A stretch of DNA of 64,000 nt from Candidatus Gastranaerophilales bacterium (GCA_944325145.1 CALYDL010000003.1:30559-94558), one strand, 5' to 3'. Positions 2,041 through 40,235 are shown, counted from the first letter of the stretch. The notes: generated by a model not told the origin, from the sequence alone. Numbers and translations are program-made.

Positions 2041-3447
2041 ATGATTAAAATTGATTTCAAAAATGTATCATCAAATGTTATAGGCGAAAAGTTCGGGCTT
2101 GATATTGAATCTGAATTTGGTGTTTATGCCCCTAAAATTGAAGAAATCATAAAAAATCTTAATTTTAATAAAGATAAACAAGGCGCATGGCTTCAGTGGA
2201 TGAATTTAGGGTATAACGAAGAAACCCTTTGGTATGTTAAAGAATATGCAGCCATGGTTGAAAACAGGTTTGATAACGTTCTTGTTTTGGGCATTGGCGG
2301 CTCTGCCTTGGGTGCAATTGCTTTTTGCCACGCACTTTTAAACCCAAATTGGAATTTACTTACAAAAGAAGAAAGAGGCGGATACCCCAGAATTTTCTTC
2401 TTAGATAATATTGACCCTGATGAAATTCAAAGTTTGTTAAATATACTTGACCTTAAAAGAACTCTTGTAAATGTAATCACAAAATCGGGCTCAACCGCAG
2501 AAACAATGGCGCAGTTTATGATAATTAAAGATAAAATGCAAAGTTTGTTGGGCGATGATTACAGAAAAAATATTGTTGCGACAACAGATAAACAATCGGG
2601 TGTTTTAAGGCAAATTGCAAACGAAGAAGGGTATAAAACATTTGTTGTGCCGGATGATGTTGGCGGTAGGTTTTCCGTTTTTTCACCCGTTGGGCTTGTT
2701 CCAATGGCGCTTGTGGGTATAGACATTGATGAAATTATGAACGGCATTAAAACAATGGATTTGGCCCTTAAAAATACAGACATTAATAAAAATATTGCAG
2801 CGCAAAATGCCTTAATTCATTATTTAATGGATACTCAAAAGGGGCATTATATTACAGTTATGATGCCATATTCATCAAGATTAAAATATGTATCGGATTG
2901 GTTTGTTCAGCTTTGGGCGGAATCTTTAGGAAAAGAAGTTGATAGAGATGGAAATATTGTAAATATCGGCCCTGTTCCAATTAAAGCGTTAGGCGCAACA
3001 GACCAGCACTCTCAAATTCAACTTTATAATGAAGGCAAACACGATAAATTAATTAACTTTATAAGAGTTGATGAATTTGACAGTGTGGTTGAAATTCCAA
3101 AAATATTTGAATTTACGGGAATTAATTATTTGGGCGGCAAAACAATTAACGAACTTATAAACGCAGAAGCTGATGCCACAGCAGTTGCGCTATCTGATTT
3201 TAAACGCCCCAATTTAACAATCCATATGCCGAAAGTGAACGCTTATTATATGGCGCAATTATTCTATATGCTTGAAGTTCAAACTGCAATTGCCGGCGAA
3301 TTATATAATATAAATGCATTTAACCAACCGGGCGTTGAACAAGCAAAAAATTATACCTATGCTCTTATGGGCAGATCAGGTTATGAAGAATCAAGACATG
3401 AATTGGAAGAAAAAATAGGAATTAAAAAAGAAGAAATTAGCCAATAA
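2041..3447 (+). CDS. pgi: glucose-6-phosphate isomerase
   Basis: 468 aa. SIS-domain motifs VLVLGIGGSALG, ITKSGSTAET, GGRFSVFSPVGL, DQHSQIQLY. Confidence 0.9.
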   Translation: MIKIDFKNVSSNVIGEKFGLDIESEFGVYAPKIEEIIKNLNFNKDKQGAWLQWMNLGYNEETLWYVKEYAAMVENRFDNVLVLGIGGSALGAIAFCHALLNPNWNLLTKEERGGYPRIFFLDNIDPDEIQSLLNILDLKRTLVNVITKSGSTAETMAQFMIIKDKMQSLLGDDYRKNIVATTDKQSGVLRQIANEEGYKTFVVPDDVGGRFSVFSPVGLVPMALVGIDIDEIMNGIKTMDLALKNTDINKNIAAQNALIHYLMDTQKGHYITVMMPYSSRLKYVSDWFVQLWAESLGKEVDRDGNIVNIGPVPIKALGATDQHSQIQLYNEGKHDKLINFIRVDEFDSVVEIPKIFEFTGINYLGGKTINELINAEADATAVALSDFKRPNLTIHMPKVNAYYMAQLFYMLEVQTAIAGELYNINAFNQPGVEQAKNYTYALMGRSGYEESRHELEEKIGIKKEEISQ

Positions 3448-5207: not shown

Positions 5208-6510
5208 TAATTGAAGAATTGATGTTTTCTAATCTTTCAATTCTTTCTTTAAGTGCGCCGATTGGTTTATAATATGGTTCTACCGTCATAATTTTTGCTG
5301 CAATATTCGGGTAGAAATAAATAAACCTTAATTCACTTTTTGTTAAAGGCTTTTGAGTGTGAACGTTAGCGTATCTTGCAAGTTCTAAGATGTTTCTTGC
5401 TTCTTCTTCGTCTTTAAATTCAAGTTCTAAGTTTTGATATACGTTTCTAAAACCTTTAATACCTGAATATTCGCCAACTGTAATCATTCTGCCTGTTTCA
5501 ATGATTTCAGGTTCGCCTTTTCCAAGTTCTTCATAATCGTAAAGTTCATAATTTCTTCTGTCTTTTAAGGCGCCATCTGCGTGGATGCCAGATTCATGCG
5601 CAAAAGCGTTGTCGCCAACTGCAACTTGGTTCATAGGAATTGCAACGCCAAAAGCGTAAGCTGTATATTTTGCTAATTTCCAAGCTTTTGATAAATCAAT
5701 TTGAGGGTCAATTTGGTATTTGCCTTCAAAGCCTGAAGATTTTAAAATTGCAAGAATACAAGAAATTAAATCTGCGTTGCCGGCACGTTCTCCCATGCCG
5801 TTTATTGCTGTATTTATCCAAGGGGTAACGCCCGCATCAACTGCTGCTTTTGCACCCATAACAGAGTTTGCAACGGCCATGCCTAAGTCGTTATGGAAGT
5901 GAAGTTCAATATCCATATTTGTTTCTTTTGCAAGGGTGTAAATTCTGTCATATGCTGTTTTTGGGTCGTCATAACCTAAGGTGTCACAATATCTGAACCT
6001 TTTTGCGCCATATCTTTTGCATTCATTTGCATATTTAATAAGGTAGTTTAAATCTGACCTTGAGGCGTCTTCTGCGTTAACGCCGATTATATTTGCATTG
6101 TTTTTAACGGCTTCATTCACTGCTTCTAATGTTTGAGCTAAAATGTCATCTTTTGTTTTTTTGCCGCCGTATTTACCGTTTATCATTTGATCTGATGTAG
6201 ATTGCGACAAATTAATGTTCTTTAATTTAGGAACATTTTTAAAAGATTTATCAACATCTGATGCCAATGCTCTTGACCACCCTGATAAAATTGTTTTATC
6301 AATGGCGCCCCTTTCAACGAGCATTATGTTGCCGTTCAAGTAATTAATTTCATGGCAAGTTGTCGGGAAACCAAACTCTGATTGGGTTATTCCCATATCG
6401 TTTAACATAAGATTTATTATTGTTTTTTGAAGTTTAGCTAAACCAAGCCTTGATGTTTGAACACCGTCACGATTTGTAACATCTACAAATTTAATGTAAT
6501 TTTCAGTCAT
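5200..6510 (-). CDS. HMGL-like 2-isopropylmalate / homocitrate / citramalate synthase family protein
   Basis: 436 aa. DVTNRDGVQ, HFHNDLGMAVAN, HESGIHADG. No long LeuA regulatory domain, so substrate not assignable. Overlaps miaB by 8 nt. Confidence 0.8.
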   Translation of the reverse strand: MTENYIKFVDVTNRDGVQTSRLGLAKLQKTIINLMLNDMGITQSEFGFPTTCHEINYLNGNIMLVERGAIDKTILSGWSRALASDVDKSFKNVPKLKNINLSQSTSDQMINGKYGGKKTKDDILAQTLEAVNEAVKNNANIIGVNAEDASRSDLNYLIKYANECKRYGAKRFRYCDTLGYDDPKTAYDRIYTLAKETNMDIELHFHNDLGMAVANSVMGAKAAVDAGVTPWINTAINGMGERAGNADLISCILAILKSSGFEGKYQIDPQIDLSKAWKLAKYTAYAFGVAIPMNQVAVGDNAFAHESGIHADGALKDRRNYELYDYEELGKGEPEIIETGRMITVGEYSGIKGFRNVYQNLELEFKDEEEARNILELARYANVHTQKPLTKSELRFIYFYPNIAAKIMTVEPYYKPIGALKERIERLENINSSIIV

Positions 6511-6648
6511 ATTCTACCTTTTGATTAATTTATACTGTTAGTTAATATATTAACAGATAAAAAAATACTGGCAATTTTTTTTCATTTGATATAGAATAAG
6601 TCATGTAATTTGATAATATGGCATGAATTTTTCATGCGAAAGGGAAAA

Positions 6649-7479
6649 ATGCCTACTGTCTCGAAAATAACATTCGGTGAGTCGTCATTTAAAAGTTCAA
6701 ATCTACCCGAGCGACATCGAAAGCGACCAATTTTAAACAGTATATCTCAAATGTCGGATGACGAGATTATACAAGCAAGCGCAAAAGATGCAAACAAAAA
6801 AGCGGAAGAATGTAGTGCTGCACGTGCCCTAAATAAGTGGCCTTTAATGTTTATAGCAGCAACAACTGTGGCAGCAGGTGCCTTAACAAAAGGTAAATTA
6901 TCTGATAAAACTTTATCTGCAGCAAAAACTTTAGGTGCAACGGCAACGGTTTATGCTCTTTCAAAACCTGTTGATACAATAACAGACAAACTTTTAAACA
7001 GAGAAGATAAAGAAGGCAATAAAAAAGAAGCTAACCCGTTTGTTCAATTGGCAGTGGGTGTAGCGGCACTTGCAGGAGCTTCCGCTCTTGTTATAGGCGG
7101 TGCTAAAAAAGGCGGCGATAAGCTTGCAAAAATGTTCAGACCAACAGCAGATGCTATGAAAAAAGGTTTAGCACGCCATGCGGATAAATTAGACGGTTCA
7201 ATTTTAGGCAAGGCTGCAGAAAAAATTTCTAAAAGAACATCTGAAATTGCTTCAAGGTATCCGAAATTAGCTTCAGTTACAAGAAATGCAGCACTTTTTG
7301 CTCCTTTTGCAGGTGCTTTGGGCGGCTCTGTTATTTTGGCAAATGAAGTTCAAAAAGAAAGAGAAAATAATTTCTTCTCAAACGTAGAAAAACTTGCAAC
7401 AGTTAGAGAATTTGCAAGAACAGCACTTAAAGATGATGTTCAAGATACAGAAAAATCAAAAGAAGATATTGAAGATTAA
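6649..7479 (+). CDS. hypothetical protein with hydrophobic Ala-rich segments
   Basis: ORF 6610..7479. ATG at 6649 follows AAAGGGAAAA. No recognisable domain. Confidence 0.45.
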   Translation: MPTVSKITFGESSFKSSNLPERHRKRPILNSISQMSDDEIIQASAKDANKKAEECSAARALNKWPLMFIAATTVAAGALTKGKLSDKTLSAAKTLGATATVYALSKPVDTITDKLLNREDKEGNKKEANPFVQLAVGVAALAGASALVIGGAKKGGDKLAKMFRPTADAMKKGLARHADKLDGSILGKAAEKISKRTSEIASRYPKLASVTRNAALFAPFAGALGGSVILANEVQKERENNFFSNVEKLATVREFARTALKDDVQDTEKSKEDIED

Positions 7480-18803: not shown

Positions 18804-19268
18804 TTAGTTGCCTTTATAGTGGCATCTACATTTGGGGTTGTTACATTTTCCGTCCTTAGTTATCTTTAGGATGTTGTTTGTTATGTATTCGACATCAAAA
18901 TCATATTTTCTGCCAAGATTTTCTACGCGCCTAAAATACACCATTTCTTTTTTAGGATTAGTTAAAATTAAAACAACTTTTCCCTTTTTGCCGGTCATTG
19001 CATTATAGTGTAATGCTTGCCCTATGCTCTCTGCCCACTTTTTGGCAAAATCAAATTCGACTGCATGGGTTTCTGTTAAGCAATCTACCCTTGTGTAGTC
19101 CGAATTTTCATATTCCATAATTCCGTTATGCAAATTGCACCATTCAATTTGGTAACTTGCCTCAGAATGTTTGAAATAATTGTAATTTTTGCAAATTGCC
19201 GGATTGGGTATTTCACAAATAAAGCAAATAAGAAAAAATTTTATATATGGACTGAAATTCCTGTTCAT
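18804..19268 (-). CDS. hypothetical protein with an N-terminal hydrophobic segment
   Basis: 154 aa. Block RVDCLTETHAVEFDFAKKWAESIGQALHY resembles a conserved hypothetical family, possibly a nuclease-like fold. Function not supportable. Confidence 0.4.
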   Translation of the reverse strand: MNRNFSPYIKFFLICFICEIPNPAICKNYNYFKHSEASYQIEWCNLHNGIMEYENSDYTRVDCLTETHAVEFDFAKKWAESIGQALHYNAMTGKKGKVVLILTNPKKEMVYFRRVENLGRKYDFDVEYITNNILKITKDGKCNNPKCRCHYKGN

Positions 19269-32966: not shown

Positions 32967-33743
32967 ATGTTAAAAATTATGTGCCCTGCAAAAATAAATT
33001 TAACTCTAAAAGTTTTTAAAAAAGATGAAATAACAGGCTTTCACCCAATAAAAAGCATAATGCAGACAGTAAGCCTTTTTGATTATTTAACTTTTGAATT
33101 AACAAATTCAGGAAAAATTGAATTAACGGGCAATAACAATGAAATTGAATATAACGAAAACAATTTAATAATAAAAGCGGCGCTTGAATTTTATAAAAAA
33201 ACAAACTTGCCTATCTTGGGGCTTAAAATTTATTTAGAAAAAAATATCCCGATAGCAGCAGGCTTGGCAGGCGGTTCAACAGACGCTGCAGGCACAATTT
33301 TTGCCCTTAATCAATTGCACAATAACATTTTAAAAAAAGAAGAAATATTCGAAATTAATTCAAAACTTGGTTCAGACATTAATTTTTGCTATTTTGGGGG
33401 AAAAGCGCTTGCTGAAGGCAAAGGCGACAATTTAACCCCCCTTGAATTTGAACCGTTTAATTTAACAATTATAAAGCCAAAAAACCTTAAAATTTCAACA
33501 AAACTTGCCTATGAAACTTTTGATAATTTGAAAGAAACATCAAACTTAAAAAACGACCTTGAATTTGCCATGCTGCCACATTATAAAGAACTTCAAACCC
33601 TTCATAATCTTGGTTTTCAAATGTCAGGCTCTGGGCCTTCGTTTTTCATTTTAAATAAAACCATAAATGAAACCCTTAAAACCCAAGAATATCAAGTTTT
33701 TGAAAACCTAAGGGCAACAAAAAAAGGTGTTGAAATTGTTTAA
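32967..33743 (+). CDS. ispE: 4-diphosphocytidyl-2-C-methyl-D-erythritol kinase
   Basis: 258 aa. PAKINLTLKV, GHMP motif IPIAAGLAGGSTDAA. Confidence 0.9.
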   Translation: MLKIMCPAKINLTLKVFKKDEITGFHPIKSIMQTVSLFDYLTFELTNSGKIELTGNNNEIEYNENNLIIKAALEFYKKTNLPILGLKIYLEKNIPIAAGLAGGSTDAAGTIFALNQLHNNILKKEEIFEINSKLGSDINFCYFGGKALAEGKGDNLTPLEFEPFNLTIIKPKNLKISTKLAYETFDNLKETSNLKNDLEFAMLPHYKELQTLHNLGFQMSGSGPSFFILNKTINETLKTQEYQVFENLRATKKGVEIV

Positions 33744-33942
33744 AATCAACAAAATTTCCCGTTCGGGAAAATTTACCACTTTTTAACCCCAAAAACAATA
33801 AAAATTTCCCGTTCGGGAAAATTTACCCTTTTTTATCTCCAAAAACAATAAAAATTTCCCGCTTTTGGAAAATTCCTTCAATTGTCTTTTAAATAAAGCT
33901 TACCAGCCCCATTTTATATGCCCGAATTTTGCTATTTTATAA
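33741..33942 (+). repeat. left direct repeat with three palindromic boxes
   Basis: TTTCCCGTTCGGGAAA at 33755-33770 and 33805-33820. Variant TTTCCCGCTTTTGGAAAA at 33855-33872. Tail ..CCAGCCCCATTTTATATGCCCGAATTTTGCTATTTTATAAT. Confidence 0.9.
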
Positions 33943-34162
33943 TATTATTATGTAGTAATTAATAAATATTATGCTAATGTTAACAAATGTTTCAAAATTA
34001 AAGATTGTAAAAAGCTGTCCTATCCTACAAATAGACCAAACTTACAACAAAAAAAGTAAAAAATGTTATAATTCTATTGTGCAGGACCGATTGATGCAAA
34101 CTTTCGTCATTGTTTGTGTTAAGCTATTATTGATGTGTTTTGAATGGATACAAGAGGCTTAA

Positions 34163-34663
34163 ATGAATGAGTTTGAATTAATTTTGTGTAGAGTATTATC
34201 TGACTTTGAAATAGACTTTAGAAAGTTCATGGTAGATAAAGATGAAAGAATTAAAGCCCATAAATATTGTTACTTAGTTAGTAAATTTTACAAGTTTCCA
34301 ATAGATGGTTGTTTTTCTCTATATATAAATGGGCCATATAATCATCATTTGACAGATGTTTTGTTTGATATAGCCAGAAATTATGACGATATGCACTGTA
34401 GTTCTCAAAAAATAGAATTGAGCAAAATACATGGCTTAAACAATCTTATTGCTCGGATTATTGAACTATTTCCACCTAAGGATAGCGATGTAGTGTCAAG
34501 ATTAGAAATATTTACTACGTTTGATTTCATTTGTACTAACTATCCAAGTATGTCTGATAACGAAAAATTTGACATGCTTAGAAGAATTAAGGGACATTTA
34601 TTTAATAATGAAACTACGTTGCAAAATTTAATGCATATCAGAGAAGCGCTGAATTCAAGATAA
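34163..34663 (+). CDS. hypothetical protein (weak resemblance to the DUF4065/Panacea-type region, KxxKYCYL..INGPY)
   Basis: 166 aa. AAGAGG RBS. Its 3' end overlaps the convergent HD gene by 9 nt. Confidence 0.5.
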   Translation: MNEFELILCRVLSDFEIDFRKFMVDKDERIKAHKYCYLVSKFYKFPIDGCFSLYINGPYNHHLTDVLFDIARNYDDMHCSSQKIELSKIHGLNNLIARIIELFPPKDSDVVSRLEIFTTFDFICTNYPSMSDNEKFDMLRRIKGHLFNNETTLQNLMHIREALNSR

Positions 34664-36166
34664 AATATTTTCAAAATTGTATACTCTAAAGATTTTTAGA
34701 GTTTTTCGTGCTGTATTTTGTTCATCGGTGTTGTTTTCACTATTTTCATTTGTTATGAATTGCTGAAAGAAGTGATTTGGCATATCGATGATTTTTTTAC
34801 ATTTTAATTTGTCTGATACTTGAATAAAAATATCGTCACAGACAATTTTTTCACTAATTGGAGTGCCGTATAAAAATTTTTTTTCTTTTTTATTTAATTC
34901 TTTAATTTTATTTTCAAAACAAGCTTTAGCTTTTTTGTATTCTGTTTCGTTGCCAGTAATTTGACAATGAGAATTAATTAGGTTGGAGTTTGAAAAATGC
35001 TTATTAAAAAAATTTTGTTTTTCGACTTCTGGAAATTGTCTATTTACAAGCATATTTGCTAATTTGTATGTCATATTTTTTTGTTTACTAGACAGAATCT
35101 TATGGATTTGCTTCCAAAAATAATCATCATTAAAAAAGAAAAATTTATTAGGGCTATTTTCTAATAATGATTTAAAATTGTTAACAGTAGAATATTCTTC
35201 ATCTATTTTTTTATCAATCAATAATTTTGTGTACAATCTTTTTGCAATATTATTTACAATATACGTTTTGTCATAATATAAAATATTCGAATACCAGTAA
35301 TATTTAGCTAAAATAAATTGTTCTATAACTTGTAGAGCCTCTTCTTTGAATGCAACCCTTTCTGTTTTTATACCATTTATTTCTATTTTATATGGAATCA
35401 TATTTTTGATAATAAAATCAATATCTACTGATGCAAGTATCCCAGTATTTATGGTATCTCTTTTCATATAATCCATTTGATCTGCATCTAGTCTGGAATT
35501 AATCAAATCTGAAGCTATAAAATATTCTTTATTGACCGGCTGACCAACAATTAAGCTTGCAATTATTTCAATGTCGCTATCATTTATTTCATGAAACAAT
35601 TTTTTAAAATTTTCTTTAAATGGCCCGCTTTGTAATATATATTTTGCAAATGTTTCATGATGGAGTTCTGATTGATTAACTTTTTCTTGATGCATCAAAA
35701 AAGTTTGTATATCATTGCTGTCACATATTTTTTTTAGTGATGGCTGTTCTGTTATGCCAGTGTTTTCAACTAATAAGCTTTTTAATGACTGCTGTTGCTC
35801 TGCAAGCTGATACTCCTTGTATGAACTTTCTATAGTGTGTGATAGTGGATAATGCCCGATATCATGTAACAATGCAGCCAACCTTGTTATCTGGTGATTT
35901 TTATAGTCATTAAAAAAAGTGCAATTCTTGGCTTTTAATCTTTGAATCATTTTTTCTACAATGTGAAGAACTCCAAGAGAATGAGAAAATCTCGTGTGTA
36001 CTGCACCTGGAAAAACAAAATGTGACAAGCTTAGCTGTTTGATGAAATTTAGCCTTTGAAAGTAGCTGGTATTTAATAGCTCTTTTTCTTCTTTTGTTAG
36101 TGAAATAAAGCCATGAACATTATCATAAATTTTTTCTGTTAAATTATCTTCAAAACGCTTTCTCAT
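34655..36166 (-). CDS. HD-domain phosphohydrolase of the SAMHD1/EF1143-like (COG1078) dNTP triphosphohydrolase type, with a roughly 200-aa C-terminal extension of unknown function
   Basis: 503 aa. IYDNVHGFISL, FQRLNFIKQL, HTRFSHSLGV, LLHDIGHYPLSHT, RLDADQMDYMKRD. Confidence 0.75.
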   Translation of the reverse strand: MRKRFEDNLTEKIYDNVHGFISLTKEEKELLNTSYFQRLNFIKQLSLSHFVFPGAVHTRFSHSLGVLHIVEKMIQRLKAKNCTFFNDYKNHQITRLAALLHDIGHYPLSHTIESSYKEYQLAEQQQSLKSLLVENTGITEQPSLKKICDSNDIQTFLMHQEKVNQSELHHETFAKYILQSGPFKENFKKLFHEINDSDIEIIASLIVGQPVNKEYFIASDLINSRLDADQMDYMKRDTINTGILASVDIDFIIKNMIPYKIEINGIKTERVAFKEEALQVIEQFILAKYYWYSNILYYDKTYIVNNIAKRLYTKLLIDKKIDEEYSTVNNFKSLLENSPNKFFFFNDDYFWKQIHKILSSKQKNMTYKLANMLVNRQFPEVEKQNFFNKHFSNSNLINSHCQITGNETEYKKAKACFENKIKELNKKEKKFLYGTPISEKIVCDDIFIQVSDKLKCKKIIDMPNHFFQQFITNENSENNTDEQNTARKTLKIFRVYNFENILS

Positions 36167-36267
36167 GCTTTTATTCTAGCATATTATTTGAAAAAGAAAA
36201 TGAAAAATCATTTTATTTAGAAAAATCTGCCCTTAACCCCTTATGGCTACAAAAACAAGAAAGCCTA

Positions 36268-36363
36268 TATTTCGCTATATTCAAAATGCAATTTTCCTTC
36301 TTCGTTTTGGTTTAAATAGCCGGCTAATTCTCCATAAAGCCAAACAGAAAGGGGTTTTTTCAT
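36268..36363 (-). pseudogene. hipA: hipA N-terminal remnant (31 codons then a stop)
   Basis: ATGA start/stop overlap with hipB. MKKPLSVWLYGELAGYLNQNEEGKLHFEYSEI* matches the HipA N-terminal coupling-domain pattern. No continuation found in any frame. Confidence 0.55.
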
Positions 36364-36569
36364 AGGTCAATAACCTCAAATTCAATTCCAAGAGAATTTA
36401 AAATTTTTAAAACTTTTCCAATTTGTGCGGTTTCTTTGCCGTTTTCAAATTCAACAATAAACCTCACCCCAACGCTACTTGCAAGCGCAAGCTCGCTTTG
36501 AGTGAGCCCAAGGCTTTTTCTTTTTTCTTTTGCAAATTTCCCTAAATCGCTTGTCGAAGTAATTTTCAA
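36360..36569 (-). CDS. hipB: HipB-like XRE-family antitoxin/regulator
   Basis: 69 aa. LGLTQSELALASSVGVRFIVEFENGKETAQIGKVLKILNSLGIEF (y4mF/HipB-type pattern). Confidence 0.75.
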   Translation of the reverse strand: MKITSTSDLGKFAKEKRKSLGLTQSELALASSVGVRFIVEFENGKETAQIGKVLKILNSLGIEFEVIDL

Positions 36570-36577
36570 AATAATTT

Positions 36578-36774
36578 CCTAAAATTTTCCCGTTCGGTAA
36601 AATTATAACCTTTTTTAACATTAAAATCAACAAATTTTCCCGTTCGGGAAATTTTACCACTTTTTAACCCCAAAAATAATAAAAAATTTCCCGCTTTTGG
36701 AAAATTCCTTCAATTGTCTTTTAAATAAAGCTTTCCAGCCCCATTTTATATGCCCGAATTTTGCTATTTTATAA
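36578..36774 (+). repeat. right direct repeat with three palindromic boxes
   Basis: TTTTCCCGTTCGGTAAAA at 36585-36602, TTTCCCGTTCGGGAAA at 36636-36651, TTTCCCGCTTTTGGAAAA at 36687-36704. Same tail as the left repeat. Lies between divergent hipB and the recombinase gene. Confidence 0.9.
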
Positions 36775-36809
36775 TTTTTATATGCGGTAAATAACCAAAA
36801 GGGGCAATT

Positions 36810-37349
36810 ATGACAACAGTTGAACCCATCAGAAATTTATCCGACCTGAAAAAGGTTGAATTTTTGCTTGAAAAAAATAAAAGAAATTTGCTGCTTTTCA
36901 CTCTTGGAATTAACTCCGGCCTTAGAATTTCAGACATTTTAGCTTTAAATGTTCAAGATGTGAAAGACAAAAAATTTATTCAAATAACAGAAAAAAAGAC
37001 AGGCAAATTCAAAAAAATTCCAATAAATTCAAAATTAAGACCAATGATTTTTGAATTTACCAAAAACAAAAGCCCAAATTCACCCTTGTTTGAAACCGTT
37101 TTTAAAAACAGGCTGGATAGATTTGCTGCTTATGAAATAATAAAAACTGCCTGCAAAAAAGCAGGAATTGAAGGCAAAATAGGCACGCACACTTTAAGAA
37201 AAACTTTTGGCTACCACCATTATAAAAAGTTTAAAGATGTTGCGATATTGCAAAAAATTTTCAACCATTCAAGCCCTTCAATCACTCTAAGATACATTGG
37301 AATTGAACAAGATGAAATTTTTGAAAGCTACGAAAATTTTATTTTGTAA
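36810..37349 (+). CDS. small tyrosine recombinase, catalytic domain only (similar in size to FimB/FimE-type invertases)
   Basis: 179 aa. GLRISD (Arg), HTLRKTFGYH (His-x-x-Arg), NHSSPSITLRYIG (His, Tyr). Confidence 0.8.
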   Translation: MTTVEPIRNLSDLKKVEFLLEKNKRNLLLFTLGINSGLRISDILALNVQDVKDKKFIQITEKKTGKFKKIPINSKLRPMIFEFTKNKSPNSPLFETVFKNRLDRFAAYEIIKTACKKAGIEGKIGTHTLRKTFGYHHYKKFKDVAILQKIFNHSSPSITLRYIGIEQDEIFESYENFIL

Positions 37350-37620
37350 AAAATAAAAAAACTAAACTACATAACATTTTTTAAACACCACATAATGTTT
37401 AAAATGTTATATAGTAACTGTTTAATAATATCATAAATAATATAATACTGGAATTTTCTTATTTATATATTTATATTCTTTCAAATTTCTAAAATAAAAA
37501 ATGTTGTGAACTTAGAAAAATTATTTTCTTTTTAGTCCTGAAACTCTTTAAAAATGGGCGTGTTCCTCTATCACCACATTTTAAACAAAATGTTGTGTTT
37601 ATTTTAAAAAGGAGTATATT

Positions 37621-38583
37621 TTGAAAGAAAAAATAGATTTGGTTTACCTTTGGTGCAACCTTGATGACCCAAACTTTAAACAAAGAAAAGAAAGTTTCCT
37701 AAACGGGCAAATTGTAGATAAAGAAGCAAACAACCCATGCCGTTTTACAGATAATGGCGAATTAAAATATTCTCTAAGGTCTGTTGAACTATATGCCCCT
37801 TGGGTGAATAAAATTTATATTGTAACAGATAACCAAATTCCCGATTGGTTAAATTTAAATCATCCAAAAATTCAAATTATTAACCAAAGTGAAATTATGC
37901 CTAAATCTGCCCTTCCTTCTTTTAATTCAATTGCAATTGAACATTGCATAAAAAATATTCCAAATCTAGAAGAACACTTTATATATGCAAATGACGACAC
38001 TTTTTTTAATGATTACATAACGCCTGAATTTTTCTTTAATAAAAATGGCCACCCCATTTCAAGGTTTAGAAAAAAGCGCAAAAAACGCTATTATACAATT
38101 TATGAATACGCTTTAAATAATGCAGAAAATTTAATATATAAAAAATTTAATTTAATGCTGAATTTTGAACCGCACCATAATATAGATGCATATTTAAAAT
38201 CGGAAGTTATTAATTGCTATGAAACATTTAAAAATGAAATAGATAAAACAATTAATTCCCATTTTAGAAATAAAGAAAATGTTGAACGTGCAATTTATCA
38301 AAAATATTTTATAGCACATAAAAAAGGCGAATTTAAAAGGGTTTCAAGAGTTGATTGCAAATTAAACCCAATTAAAAGGCTTATAAATTTAATTAAAAAA
38401 GAATATAAAAAAGATTCTTGTTTAATTTCGCCCCAAGGAAGAAACATAGAAGAAATTTTAAACAAATTTAAACCCTATCTTTTTTGCCTGAATGACAATG
38501 AAAACACGACAAAAGAGGATATAGAACTTATGAAAGAATTTCTTCAAAAAAGATATCCAAATAAATCGGCTTTTGAAATTTAA
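37621..38583 (+). CDS. Stealth-family capsular polysaccharide hexose-1-phosphate transferase
   Basis: 320 aa. TTG start after AAAGGAG. CR1 IDLVYLWCNLDDP, CR2 LKYSLRSVELYAPWVNKIYIVTDNQIPDWL. Confidence 0.8.
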   Translation: MKEKIDLVYLWCNLDDPNFKQRKESFLNGQIVDKEANNPCRFTDNGELKYSLRSVELYAPWVNKIYIVTDNQIPDWLNLNHPKIQIINQSEIMPKSALPSFNSIAIEHCIKNIPNLEEHFIYANDDTFFNDYITPEFFFNKNGHPISRFRKKRKKRYYTIYEYALNNAENLIYKKFNLMLNFEPHHNIDAYLKSEVINCYETFKNEIDKTINSHFRNKENVERAIYQKYFIAHKKGEFKRVSRVDCKLNPIKRLINLIKKEYKKDSCLISPQGRNIEEILNKFKPYLFCLNDNENTTKEDIELMKEFLQKRYPNKSAFEI

Positions 38584-39469
38584 AAGGGGGCATGGTTTGC
38601 AAAATAAAAAAATATTAGTGCATCTGCACCTTTATTATCAAAACCAATTAAATTATTTTATAAAAAAATTAAAAAATATAACTTGCGAATTTGATTTAAT
38701 TGTTACCCTTGCAAATGAAAACCCCAAATTAACGGAAAAAATTAAACAATTTAAACCTAATGCCAAAATTTTGGTTGTTGAAAATTTGGGCTATGATGTT
38801 TACCCGTTTATTCAAGCCATAAATGAAACCGAACTTAAAAATTACGATTATATTTTAAAAATTCACACAAAAAACAAAAGAAAAGAATATAAGAAATTTA
38901 AAAAACTTCTTCACCATGGCTTTGATTGGCGCAATTTGCTTGTTTCTTCCTTAATTGGTTCTAAAAAAGTTTTTAACAACAATTTAAAACTTTTGGAAAA
39001 CGAAAAAACAGGCATGGTTTCAGACAATATTTTTATACATAAAATTCAAAATCAAAGCGTCAGAAATTTTGAATATACAAATGAAATTATGCAAAAATTT
39101 GCTTGCATGGATGACAAAGCAACATTTTCAACAGGCACAATGTTTCTTATTAAAAGAGAAATAGTTGAAAAAATAAAAAGTTTTAATTTTACAAAAGAAG
39201 ATTTTACATCCCATGGCGACAAACAAATGAAAACAGGCAATTTGGGGCAATTTGCCCATGCCATGGAAGCTTTTTTCGGCGCAGTTGTAGCTGATATGGG
39301 ATATGAACATATAGGCGCTTCTGATTTTTGGCAGCATTTCTTCTTTTATTTAAAACAGCCCTATTACAGAATTAAAAGGGGAATTTTTTCAATTGAACAC
39401 AAGTTTGACGGAACTGTTGTTTTAATCATCTTGTTTAAAAAAATGAAACTAAAACAAAAGAAAAAATAA
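38573..39469 (+). CDS. rhamnan-synthesis protein F (RgpF)-like protein
   Basis: 298 aa. ILVHLHLYYQNQL..FDLIVT pattern. Start uncertain: TTG 38573, or TTG 38597 after AAAGGGGG. Confidence 0.55.
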   Translation: MKFKRGHGLQNKKILVHLHLYYQNQLNYFIKKLKNITCEFDLIVTLANENPKLTEKIKQFKPNAKILVVENLGYDVYPFIQAINETELKNYDYILKIHTKNKRKEYKKFKKLLHHGFDWRNLLVSSLIGSKKVFNNNLKLLENEKTGMVSDNIFIHKIQNQSVRNFEYTNEIMQKFACMDDKATFSTGTMFLIKREIVEKIKSFNFTKEDFTSHGDKQMKTGNLGQFAHAMEAFFGAVVADMGYEHIGASDFWQHFFFYLKQPYYRIKRGIFSIEHKFDGTVVLIILFKKMKLKQKKK

Positions 39470-39632
39470 AAATCCATGCCAAAATTAATGTTTGAATAAG
39501 ATTTTAAATCCCAAAAAATAAAAATAAAACTAAAATAAAAAATATGGACATGGGAAAATGGTTGCTATATTTGAATTTTAGAATAATTATTAACAAATGT
39601 TAAACAGTTACAAAATAATTTTAAAAAAACGC

Positions 39633-39660
39633 TTGCAATTTTTTCTTGAAGAGTTAAATT
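39633..39660 (+). promoter_or_regulatory. rRNA promoter candidate P1
   Basis: TTGCAA, 16 nt spacer, TAAATT, preceded by an A-run. Confidence 0.45.
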
Positions 39661-39758
39661 AATAATCATTGAAAGACAGCACATTCTCAAACGAATCACC
39701 ACACTAAGTTAAACATTAACAACGAGAGAACCAAGTGAAATAAAATTTAAAAAATCAC

Positions 39759-39786
39759 TTGACAATAAATTTTGAGATGTTAAGCT
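39759..39786 (+). promoter_or_regulatory. rRNA promoter candidate P2
   Basis: TTGACA, 16 nt spacer, TAAGCT, preceded by an A-run. Shares the ..CTTGAC..TTGAGATG.TAAG.. frame with P3 and P4. Confidence 0.55.
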
Positions 39787-39873
39787 GTTAAAGCTGACCT
39801 TTTACAAGCTAACATTTTAAACTGGAAAAATTTCTCAAGTTTCAACAATTAAGTTGATTTAAAAAATAACCGC

Positions 39874-39901
39874 TTGACATTAAAACTTGAGATGATAAGC
39901 T
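39874..39901 (+). promoter_or_regulatory. rRNA promoter candidate P3
   Basis: TTGACA, 16 nt spacer, TAAGCT, preceded by AAAAAATAACCGC. Confidence 0.55.
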
Positions 39902-39972
39902 TGTTAAGCACGGGTTACCAAAACCCAAAATCTTGAGTGTAAACTTAAGTTAAGAAAATAAAAAATTAACGC

Positions 39973-40000
39973 TTGACTTTAAAACTTGAGATGATAAGAT
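39973..40000 (+). promoter_or_regulatory. rRNA promoter candidate P4
   Basis: TTGACT, 16 nt spacer, TAAGAT, preceded by AAAAAATTAACGC. Confidence 0.6.
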
Positions 40001-40097
40001 ACTAAAGGCGGTTGAAACGCCTTCTGGTAAAGGGATGGTTAAAGCTGATTAAAGGCTTATTTTAAAGCGCCCTTTATAATGTAAAAGATTTATTCTT

Positions 40098-40109
40098 GAA
40101 CATTGAAAA
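40098..40109 (+). promoter_or_regulatory. BoxA-like antitermination motif in the rRNA leader
   Basis: GAACATTGAAAA, compared with the cyanobacterial BoxA GAACCTTGAAAA. Confidence 0.5.
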
Positions 40110-40235
40110 TAGAATAACATAATACAAACGACAAATACCTGTTGATTTTTTTAAGAAAAACAATCGGACAAAAGCTAAAGCTTTAAATTTTGAGTCAATC
40201 ACTTCTTTCTGAAGTGTCAGACATAAATTTCTGAC

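Follow-up and report, generated by a model that had tools for sequence, protein, structure and literature searches.

Invertible promoter switches with small tyrosine recombinases are known from E. coli (fimS, with FimB and FimE), from C. difficile (RecV) and as the gut invertons that lie before capsule loci. SAMHD1-like deoxynucleoside triphosphohydrolase (dNTPase) or dGTPase defence genes are known in prokaryotes, and PADLOC has a dGTPase model for them. Genes that resemble both, together with the remains of a hipBA toxin–antitoxin operon, are found side by side in a 64-kb stretch of DNA from a gut Candidatus Gastranaerophilales (Melainabacteria), one of the non-photosynthetic gut relatives of the cyanobacteria. 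This whole stretch is called the window here, and the analysis concerns the variable locus in it that runs from ispE to a set of surface-polysaccharide genes. Fourfold palindromic HipB operator arrays upstream of hipBA are established in E. coli, with TATCC-N8-GGATA, and in Shewanella oneidensis, with GTGTA-N6-TACAC (PMC4150777), both of them different in sequence from the one described here.

The hipBA part of the locus is like the known type II operons in that a small helix-turn-helix antitoxin gene overlaps hipA, and in having three to four phased boxes upstream, with the proximal box at the promoter. It is unlike them in the sequence of the box, which is TTTCCCG-N2-CGGGAAA, and in its Y4mF-type HipB; moreover only 32 codons of hipA are left, and a second copy of most of the operator array lies 2.8 kb away. 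The recombinase part is like the invertons, with a catalytic-only protein of about 180 amino acids encoded beside an inverted-repeat segment 5′ of surface-polysaccharide genes, and with both orientations occurring in nature. Unlike fimS, it has a recombinase that is not an orthologue of FimB or FimE (37.9 bits against a cut-off of 222 bits), and its host belongs to the Gastranaerophilales. The third part contains a gene that we call HD503, which is like the SAMHD1-like defence genes in belonging to the HD dNTP-triphosphohydrolase fold family and in having homologues beside restriction–modification, defence and mobile-element genes. It differs from them in that it matches dGTPase models weakly and is always accompanied by a convergent partner gene of about 160–170 codons, and its activity is putative. 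Integrons are similar in topology only, in that a variable block of genes begins at the region upstream of the recombinase gene, which is read in the direction away from the block; unlike an integron, the locus has no IntI-specific domain and no attC, one of its cargo boundaries lies in a pseudogene, and its genes, which are in mixed orientation, are served by promoters of their own.

The locus is made up of three known kinds of thing, namely a decaying hipBA operon with partly duplicated operators, an inserted HD/partner module and an invertible switch. It is rearranged but ordinary, and it is not an integron-like capture system, as had been proposed in an initial annotation of the same DNA. 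We consider it likely that a duplicated hipBA control region flanks the HD/partner module, and that the recombinase is not involved in this arrangement but inverts a switch downstream. The features are collected in Table 1.

Table 1. Features of the variable locus (positions in the window)
Feature	Position	Strand	Remarks
ispE (GHMP kinase)	32967..33743	+	left anchor of the variable locus
Left repeat copy (U)	33742..33943	+	units u1, u2, u3 and tail
Cargo module leader, non-coding	33944..34162	+	conserved extended −10 TGTTATAAT at 34064-34072
ORF166, small partner gene of the HD module	34163..34663	+	
HD503, HD-domain protein	34655..36166	−	
HD503 upstream region	36167..36261	−	right end of inserted DNA at ~36261/36262
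hipA remnant, 32 codons	36265..36363	−	N-terminal end of 408-aa HipA
hipB, Y4mF-family antitoxin/repressor, 69 aa	36360..36569	−	
Right repeat copy, native hipB/recombinase intergenic region	36573..36775	+	
Tyrosine recombinase, 179 aa, catalytic domain only	36810..37349	+	
Left inverted-repeat arm of switch, IRL	37382..37407	.	26 nt
Invertible segment, 168 bp	37408..37575	.	opposite orientation in L008 and L155
Right inverted-repeat arm of switch, IRR	37576..37601	.	26 nt
Surface-polysaccharide genes (Stealth, RgpF)	37621..39469	+	downstream of switch

The direct repeat, a probable hipBA control region

A block of about 200 bp occurs twice in direct orientation, as the initial annotation had stated, and the two copies align throughout; the repeat is real and far above chance. 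Each copy has three units, although the unit length is 50 bp and not the 48 bp or so first given. The left copy consists of u1 (33742-33791), u2 (33792-33841) and u3 with a tail (33842-33943), and the right copy of R1 (36573-36622), u1 (36623-36672) and u3 with the tail (36673-36775), in agreement with the a-b-c and 0-a-c contents that had been noted. R1, the unit nearest to hipB, is missing from the left copy. The first unit on the left and the second on the right (L1 and R2) are 96% identical, and over the roughly 103 bp of u3 and tail the copies differ by one substitution and one 1-nt indel. The shared tail with its TATAAT end is borne out: in the left copy the tail is about 70 bp long and has TATAAT at its end, and in the right copy TATAAT is at 36770-36775. 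The left copy starts in the stop codon of ispE (33741-33743), and 35 nt separate the end of the right copy from the recombinase ATG (36810), both as annotated.

The palindromic boxes are at 33755-33770 and 33805-33820 in the left copy and at 36586-36601 (R1) and 36636-36651 (u1) in the right copy. The earlier description gave one box to every unit, which holds for these four; the boxes of the third units (33855-33871 and 36687-36703) are degenerate. With at most one mismatch the palindrome TTTCCCGTTCGGGAAA is matched four times in the window, all within the repeat region, and at up to three mismatches 0.7 chance matches would be expected in the window.

Box arrays of this kind were then sought elsewhere by scanning metagenomes for two boxes 44-56 bp apart, with hipB looked for by tblastn. 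The scan returned 69 loci (L101-L169) from unrelated organisms with GC contents from 30 to 71%. A hipB homologue (38-56% identity) was found at 60 of them, and in all 60 the boxes are upstream of hipB, typically with 10-15 nt between the end of the box and the estimated hipB start. These 60 loci have one to three strict boxes spaced by 49-50 bp. In the great majority hipA then follows hipB. A recombinase homologue is present in one of the 69, which is the Gastranaerophilales locus itself (L155). The nine loci with no hipB match comprise three with boxes less than 100 bp from the end of the fetched sequence (L102, L118, L129), three that resemble chance matches (L116, L127, L150), and three with clear box arrays and no match at the threshold used (L113, L114, L125).

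Since the boxes are linked to hipB across unrelated organisms, they are taken to be an operator array of the HipB family and not recombinase sites. On this comparative association the 50-bp units appear to be HipB operators with the palindrome TTTCCCG-N2-CGGGAAA, and HipB is predicted to bind the boxes. A phasing of about 50 bp corresponds to about five helical turns, and the operators would therefore lie on one face of the helix. At L101-L169 outside the window locus, conservation is limited to the boxes, whereas in the window the entire 50-bp units resemble each other, which suggests local tandem duplication.

The gene next to the right copy is placed in this family: HipB matches the NCBIfam model TIGR03070 (couple_hipB) with 72.0 bits against a cut-off of 71.65, and also Pfam HTH_3, and the start of the hipA remnant overlaps the hipB stop codon (ATGA). 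In the window the R1 box comes immediately after a minus-strand promoter-like site (TTGATT-17-TATAAT) that reads into hipB, with the −35 at 36630-36625 and the −10, carried by R1, at 36607-36602. Among the allelic contigs described below, R1 is found wherever hipB is present. Because its upstream neighbour is hipB followed by the N-terminus of hipA, the right repeat copy is the intergenic region between the divergent hipB and recombinase genes, of which the tail would be the part proximal to the recombinase promoter. The repeat is a duplicated hipBA control region.

Other roles were looked for. The only other match to the tail as a regulon motif in the window (at 19100) is inside a coding region, and in about 80 loci of other species the tail sequence has no match except in L021 and L170. 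A search for RNA families over 33.6-37.7 kb found no structured family, the one match (Atu_C10) being sub-threshold with 20.8 bits against 60. No tRNA gene that could serve as an integration target lies between 30 and 47 kb of the window.

Alleles of the locus and the origin of the left copy

Metagenome contigs were collected by an exact-protein look-up of the recombinase; ERZ24773436, ERZ28614180 and ERR11474118 are among their source metagenomes. Among contigs that encode the identical recombinase there are three arrangements, so that the segment between the repeats is indeed an accessory one. Type A (L001, L005, L006) is that of the window. Type B (L002-L004, L007, L008), the commonest alternative allele, has a full hipA adjoining the ispE stop, then hipB, one repeat and the recombinase gene, and no left copy; the number of units differs among its contigs (R1 and two or three units). 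Type C (L009, L010) has ispE, a single repeat copy u1-u2-u3-tail and the recombinase gene. It corresponds to the empty site that the initial annotation had proposed to look for, as seen in short contigs and, for L009, at low coverage (~3x). A second strain background of type A (L011) has u1-u2-u3-tail on the left and, on the right, R1 followed by the same u1-u2-u3-tail, which is a clean duplication of about 205 bp.

The alleles show what has been lost. The allelic contigs encode a full HipA of 408 amino acids with Couple_hipA and HipA_C domains, and the intact HipA kinase gene that they have directly after hipB is absent in the window, which keeps 32 hipA codons and about 5 more homologous bases, with an 8-bp deletion in the remnant. 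Homology between types A and B resumes at ~36262, inside hipA. The right end of the cargo is an illegitimate junction within hipA, and is not at a repeat. The hipA junction and the 8-bp deletion are common to the two strain backgrounds in which type A is found, which indicates a single origin by an illegitimate join.

The order of events is suggested by L021, which is a close relative or a sister lineage (recombinase 97% identical, rsmA-ispE ~89% identical in nucleotides). There, ispE is followed by an internally deleted hipA, by hipB, by two boxes and by the recombinase gene. Because L021 carries a hipA that has decayed differently, together with hipB and boxes, hipBA at the ispE site is old, and a type B-like arrangement is ancestral. 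The ancestral order would be ispE, hipA-hipB, R1-u1-u2-u3-tail and the recombinase gene, and in the window allele the 3′ 1.1 kb of hipA would have been replaced by a second u1-u2-u3-tail and a two-gene accessory module. An exact look-up of HD503 gave type A in all 10 distinct places shown (24 contigs read); a precursor arrangement, sought in the same look-up, was found in none of these 10 places.

Once there are two copies, ordinary recombination accounts for much of what is seen. The species has two haplotypes of u3 and tail, and the two copies in any one type A genome share their haplotype. Between backgrounds with flanks, repeats included, that are 3-6% apart, the cargo shows a difference of only about 0.2%, which together with the matched haplotypes fits a recent spread of the cargo by recombination and gene conversion between the copies. 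The copies probably exchange sequence homologously, and the exchange would be homologous rather than site-specific. If they recombined with each other, the module and hipB would be lost and exactly the single-copy type C allele would be left. Type C could also arise from type B, by a deletion between two TTAAAA hexamers. A site-specific enzyme, including the recombinase, is unnecessary either for exchange between the repeats or for type C. For the left copy itself several origins were tried, and neither Campbell integration nor a double crossover, nor an insertion into either of types B and C, yields the structure in a single step.

A competing explanation concerns the tail. The module could have arrived with an upstream region of its own that was homologous to the tail and have recombined through it, with the left copy later overwritten by gene conversion from the right. 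The concerted evolution of the two copies agrees with this, as does a diverged tail-like sequence of about 63 bp found 5′ of the partner gene of another module, in L170 (Smith-Waterman score 36; shuffled sequences score 22 ± 2.9 and at most 32). The L170 upstream region is collinear with the window across the junction of tail and cargo, the blastn high-scoring segment pair reaching 33911 (Smith-Waterman z ~4.8), which suggests that homology between the tail and the upstream region of the module may have guided the insertion. However, L021 (z 22.7) and L022, neither of which has the module, also keep the recombinase-proximal tail 5′ of their recombinase gene, and because of this it is considered native to that gene. 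Moreover, the left copy has intact HipB boxes, the ispE side lacks the homology that conversion from the right copy would require, and there is no clear tail 5′ of the partner gene in L175. An origin through an upstream region of the module's own is for these reasons rather unlikely, and duplication of the hipBA control region is preferred.

The HD/partner module

The initial annotation placed four genes between the copies. There are indeed four, except that only two of them are intact new genes, ORF166 and HD503, which are convergent and overlap; the others are the hipA remnant and hipB. HD503 (503 amino acids) belongs to the SAMHD1/EF1143-like HD dNTP triphosphohydrolase superfamily; for the HD/partner family 2,377 homologues were counted. 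Its match to dGTPase models is weak, with 30 bits for the PADLOC model and scores under the NCBIfam cut-offs. In PADLOC, NCBIfam and Pfam, ORF166 belongs to no Pfam family, and its one match, to DarG with 15 bits, is not interpretable. A further open reading frame, ORF63 (33971-34162), is not kept as such in the collinear homologous module of L170, and is probably not a gene.

Wherever a homologous context was examined, a homologue of ORF166 encoding 157-172 amino acids (36-66% identity) accompanies the HD gene in convergent orientation. The same species has the pair at a different site (L170-174, with 98.6% nucleotide identity around recA), and another Gastranaerophilales species (L175/176) has it in the order rsmA-ispE-partner-HD-rRNA leader. 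Elsewhere the pair adjoins TniB and Mu-type transposition genes (L177), HsdR, PLDc and Nmad3 (L179), MutH, a cytosine methylase and SNF2 (L181-184), or a KAP NTPase and a serine recombinase (L185-186), and in L180 it is two genes away from a HepT/MNT-like pair. The tyrosine recombinase is present in none of the contexts L170-L186 examined, and boxes or hipB only in L179. The neighbours in diverse organisms are thus restriction–modification, SNF2, KAP NTPase, toxin–antitoxin and transposition genes, because of which the conserved two-gene module is regarded as a candidate defence system.

Two of these contexts may be described further. Comparison of L175 (1-591) with the window (39612-40151) shows that in L175 ispE is followed immediately by the HD/partner pair, and this by the leader of the rRNA operon; compared with that genome, the window has hipB, the recombinase gene, the switch and the polysaccharide genes inserted after the HD gene and before the rRNA operon. 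In L179 (4466-7114) an orphan HipB gene (54% identity) and two boxes 49 bp apart are directly upstream of an HD homologue (49% identity) and its convergent partner, with no hipA beside hipB. This is a second, independent juxtaposition of hipB and HD. A general link between the two was considered and rejected, as hipB adjoins just 2 of about 8 module contexts.

The arrangement in the window might also be functional, HipB having been kept as the regulator of an HD/partner module that replaced the toxin, with operators on both sides; it would then be a toxin swap that gave a defence-like unit under the control of HipB. This would explain why hipB is intact when hipA has been destroyed and why perfect boxes are retained in the left copy, and L179 provides a case of an orphan hipB with boxes directly upstream of an HD/partner pair and no hipA. 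Against this, most HD/partner contexts are without hipB, ORF166 and HD503 have promoter-like sequences of their own, the left boxes are more than 290 bp from the start of ORF166, and orphan antitoxins are common relics. A toxin swap is accordingly thought improbable, and it is equally doubtful that the operator duplication is adaptive, with HipB and the arrays co-opted to control the module after HipA was lost. If co-option were true, the flanking 200-bp repeats would allow the module to be lost and regained as a unit, and the L179 arrangement hints that HD modules may recurrently replace HipA.

The recombinase and the adjacent invertible switch

The recombinase aligns solely to the catalytic domain of XerA/XerC-type proteins (Pfam Phage_integrase, 87 bits). 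Compared with XerA (4a8e) its catalytic set is complete, consisting of R (in GLRISD), K, HTLR, H (in NHS) and Y (in LRYIG). The two arms 3′ of its gene are complementary at 23 of 26 positions, and are the sole two such sites in the window. In two contigs from different projects, L008 (8356-8574) and L155, the 168-bp segment between them is inverted with arms and flanks unchanged; about 15 other loci have the orientation of the window, although several of these are the same contigs fetched twice. Because both orientations occur in independent contigs, the segment between the recombinase gene and Stealth is concluded to be an invertible switch. The recombinase most likely inverts this 168-bp segment before the Stealth and RgpF genes, an assignment made from adjacency and from the inverted repeats that follow the gene in about half of 80 homologous loci from other Gastranaerophilales genomes. 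These repeats are of 16-37 nt and surround 77-337 bp (mostly ~100-240 bp) just 3′ of the recombinase gene. In ten such loci the next gene is glycan-related in five, namely GT2 (two), GT1, RgpF and polysaccharide pyruvyl transferase, and in the other five it encodes a methyltransferase, a major facilitator superfamily (MFS) transporter, a radical SAM protein (two) and one unassigned protein. The switch probably serves phase variation of the polysaccharide genes. By eye, a candidate promoter stretch TGATATTAT can be seen on the minus strand at 37433-37425, which would face the polysaccharide genes only in the orientation of L008 and L155.

Comparison of the window with L002, L007, L009 and L010 shows that strains sharing this recombinase and switch differ in their polysaccharide genes, which are either Stealth and RgpF or GT2 and others. 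Sequence conservation between such strains stops exactly at the right arm (37601), and the pattern looks as if sets of glycan genes were swapped behind a fixed switch.

The initial annotation saw the repeats in a different way, as attachment sites of the adjacent recombinase at which a cassette is captured or excised with integron-like logic. It had several things in its favour: the recombinase gene directly adjoins the right copy, there is an empty allele with a single copy, the two copies are homogenised in each genome with cargo that is nearly identical across backgrounds, and the boxes, being palindromes whose centre is asymmetric, have a form that recombinase core sites can take too. However, the boxes go with hipB in 60 of the 60 hipB-bearing loci, in unrelated organisms that have no such recombinase, the exception being this locus itself. 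Tandem units or boxes were found 5′ of none of about 75 recombinase homologues in other species (searched with TRF and a box regular expression), and the 50-bp units are therefore not a trait of the recombinase family. Nor was there a long duplication of the upstream region at any of about 75 homologous recombinase loci, this being confined to type A; the only repeats were short (56-141 bp) and unrelated, at L062, L067 and L087. The repeat is unlike the inverted-repeat arms beside the recombinase gene, and no switch-arm-like sites (up to 3 mismatches) were found in or near the direct repeats.

The proposed capture of cargo linked to the recombinase likewise does not hold up. The commonest alternative allele has an intact hipBA and no left copy, the right end of the cargo is inside hipA, and homologues of HD503 and ORF166 are found without recombinase, hipB or repeats, once directly after ispE in another species. 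For these two genes, this is the observation that the initial annotation had itself named as one that would refute its model. The locus does not have the form of an integrative element, since the recombinase gene is outside the repeats and each repeat consists of some 200 bp of regulatory sequence; the empty site of L009 and L010 would suit such an element, but this structure is equally a product of homologous recombination. As for integrons, there is no IntI-type protein, which would have about 320 residues and the integron-specific insertion, and there are no attC-like sites: the 179-residue protein scores 45.6 bits against 265 with TIGR02249 and 23.6 bits against 435 with PRK15417. The attachment-site and integron interpretation is largely refuted by these comparative data, and seems to us very improbable. 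That the duplication or the alternative alleles are merely the mis-assembly of a repeat is barely credible, for although the type C contigs are short, L009 has low coverage and many cargo contigs break at the repeats, more than 10 independent assemblies, made in different projects and with different assemblers, have type A in identical form, the two copies differ in unit content, and type B holds unique hipA sequence.

Some points weigh against the explanation by a duplicated control region and an independent invertase. The identity of the operators is argued from association. No simple one-step event, homologous or illegitimate, gives the structure of the left copy, and some of the tail may be module sequence and not a copy taken from the recombinase promoter. 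Concerted evolution of the copies is also to be expected from repeated site-specific exchange, and the type C contigs could in principle be assembler joins across the 205-bp repeat. For the switch, inversion was observed between samples and not within one population, and a simple scan finds no consensus promoter on the plus strand inside the invertible segment.

The recombinase family has some further features. In 14 loci from other Gastranaerophilales genomes (L033, L038, L040, L041, L044, L045, L047, L053, L056, L059, L066, L083, L096, L098) a second recombinase gene follows 3′ of the homologue, 250-520 bp downstream; it is a distant paralogue (28-37% identity). Some metagenome-assembled genomes carry at least two loci of the family. 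In L067, inverted copies of 141 bp (~5770-5910 and 6554-6694; 90% identical) flank the recombinase gene, which may sit within an invertible segment. In L062, a 65-bp element with a GTCGGATT...AATCCGAC hairpin occurs as a direct repeat (3325-3389 and 5794-5858), 2.4 kb apart, 5′ of the recombinase homologue. It may be a terminator or a repeat like the repetitive extragenic palindromes, and is unrelated to the HipB boxes.

These results remove the tempting interpretation of the locus as a new integron-like system, and indicate that the control region of a toxin–antitoxin operon can mimic attachment sites. They provide an operator consensus, with a spacing of about 50 bp, for the Y4mF-type HipB family across phyla, of which we found no earlier description. 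The HD gene and its small partner form a conserved module, often beside restriction–modification and mobile-element genes, and are a candidate defence system. For the Gastranaerophilales, they document an invertible switch and a conserved family of small invertases before glycan genes.

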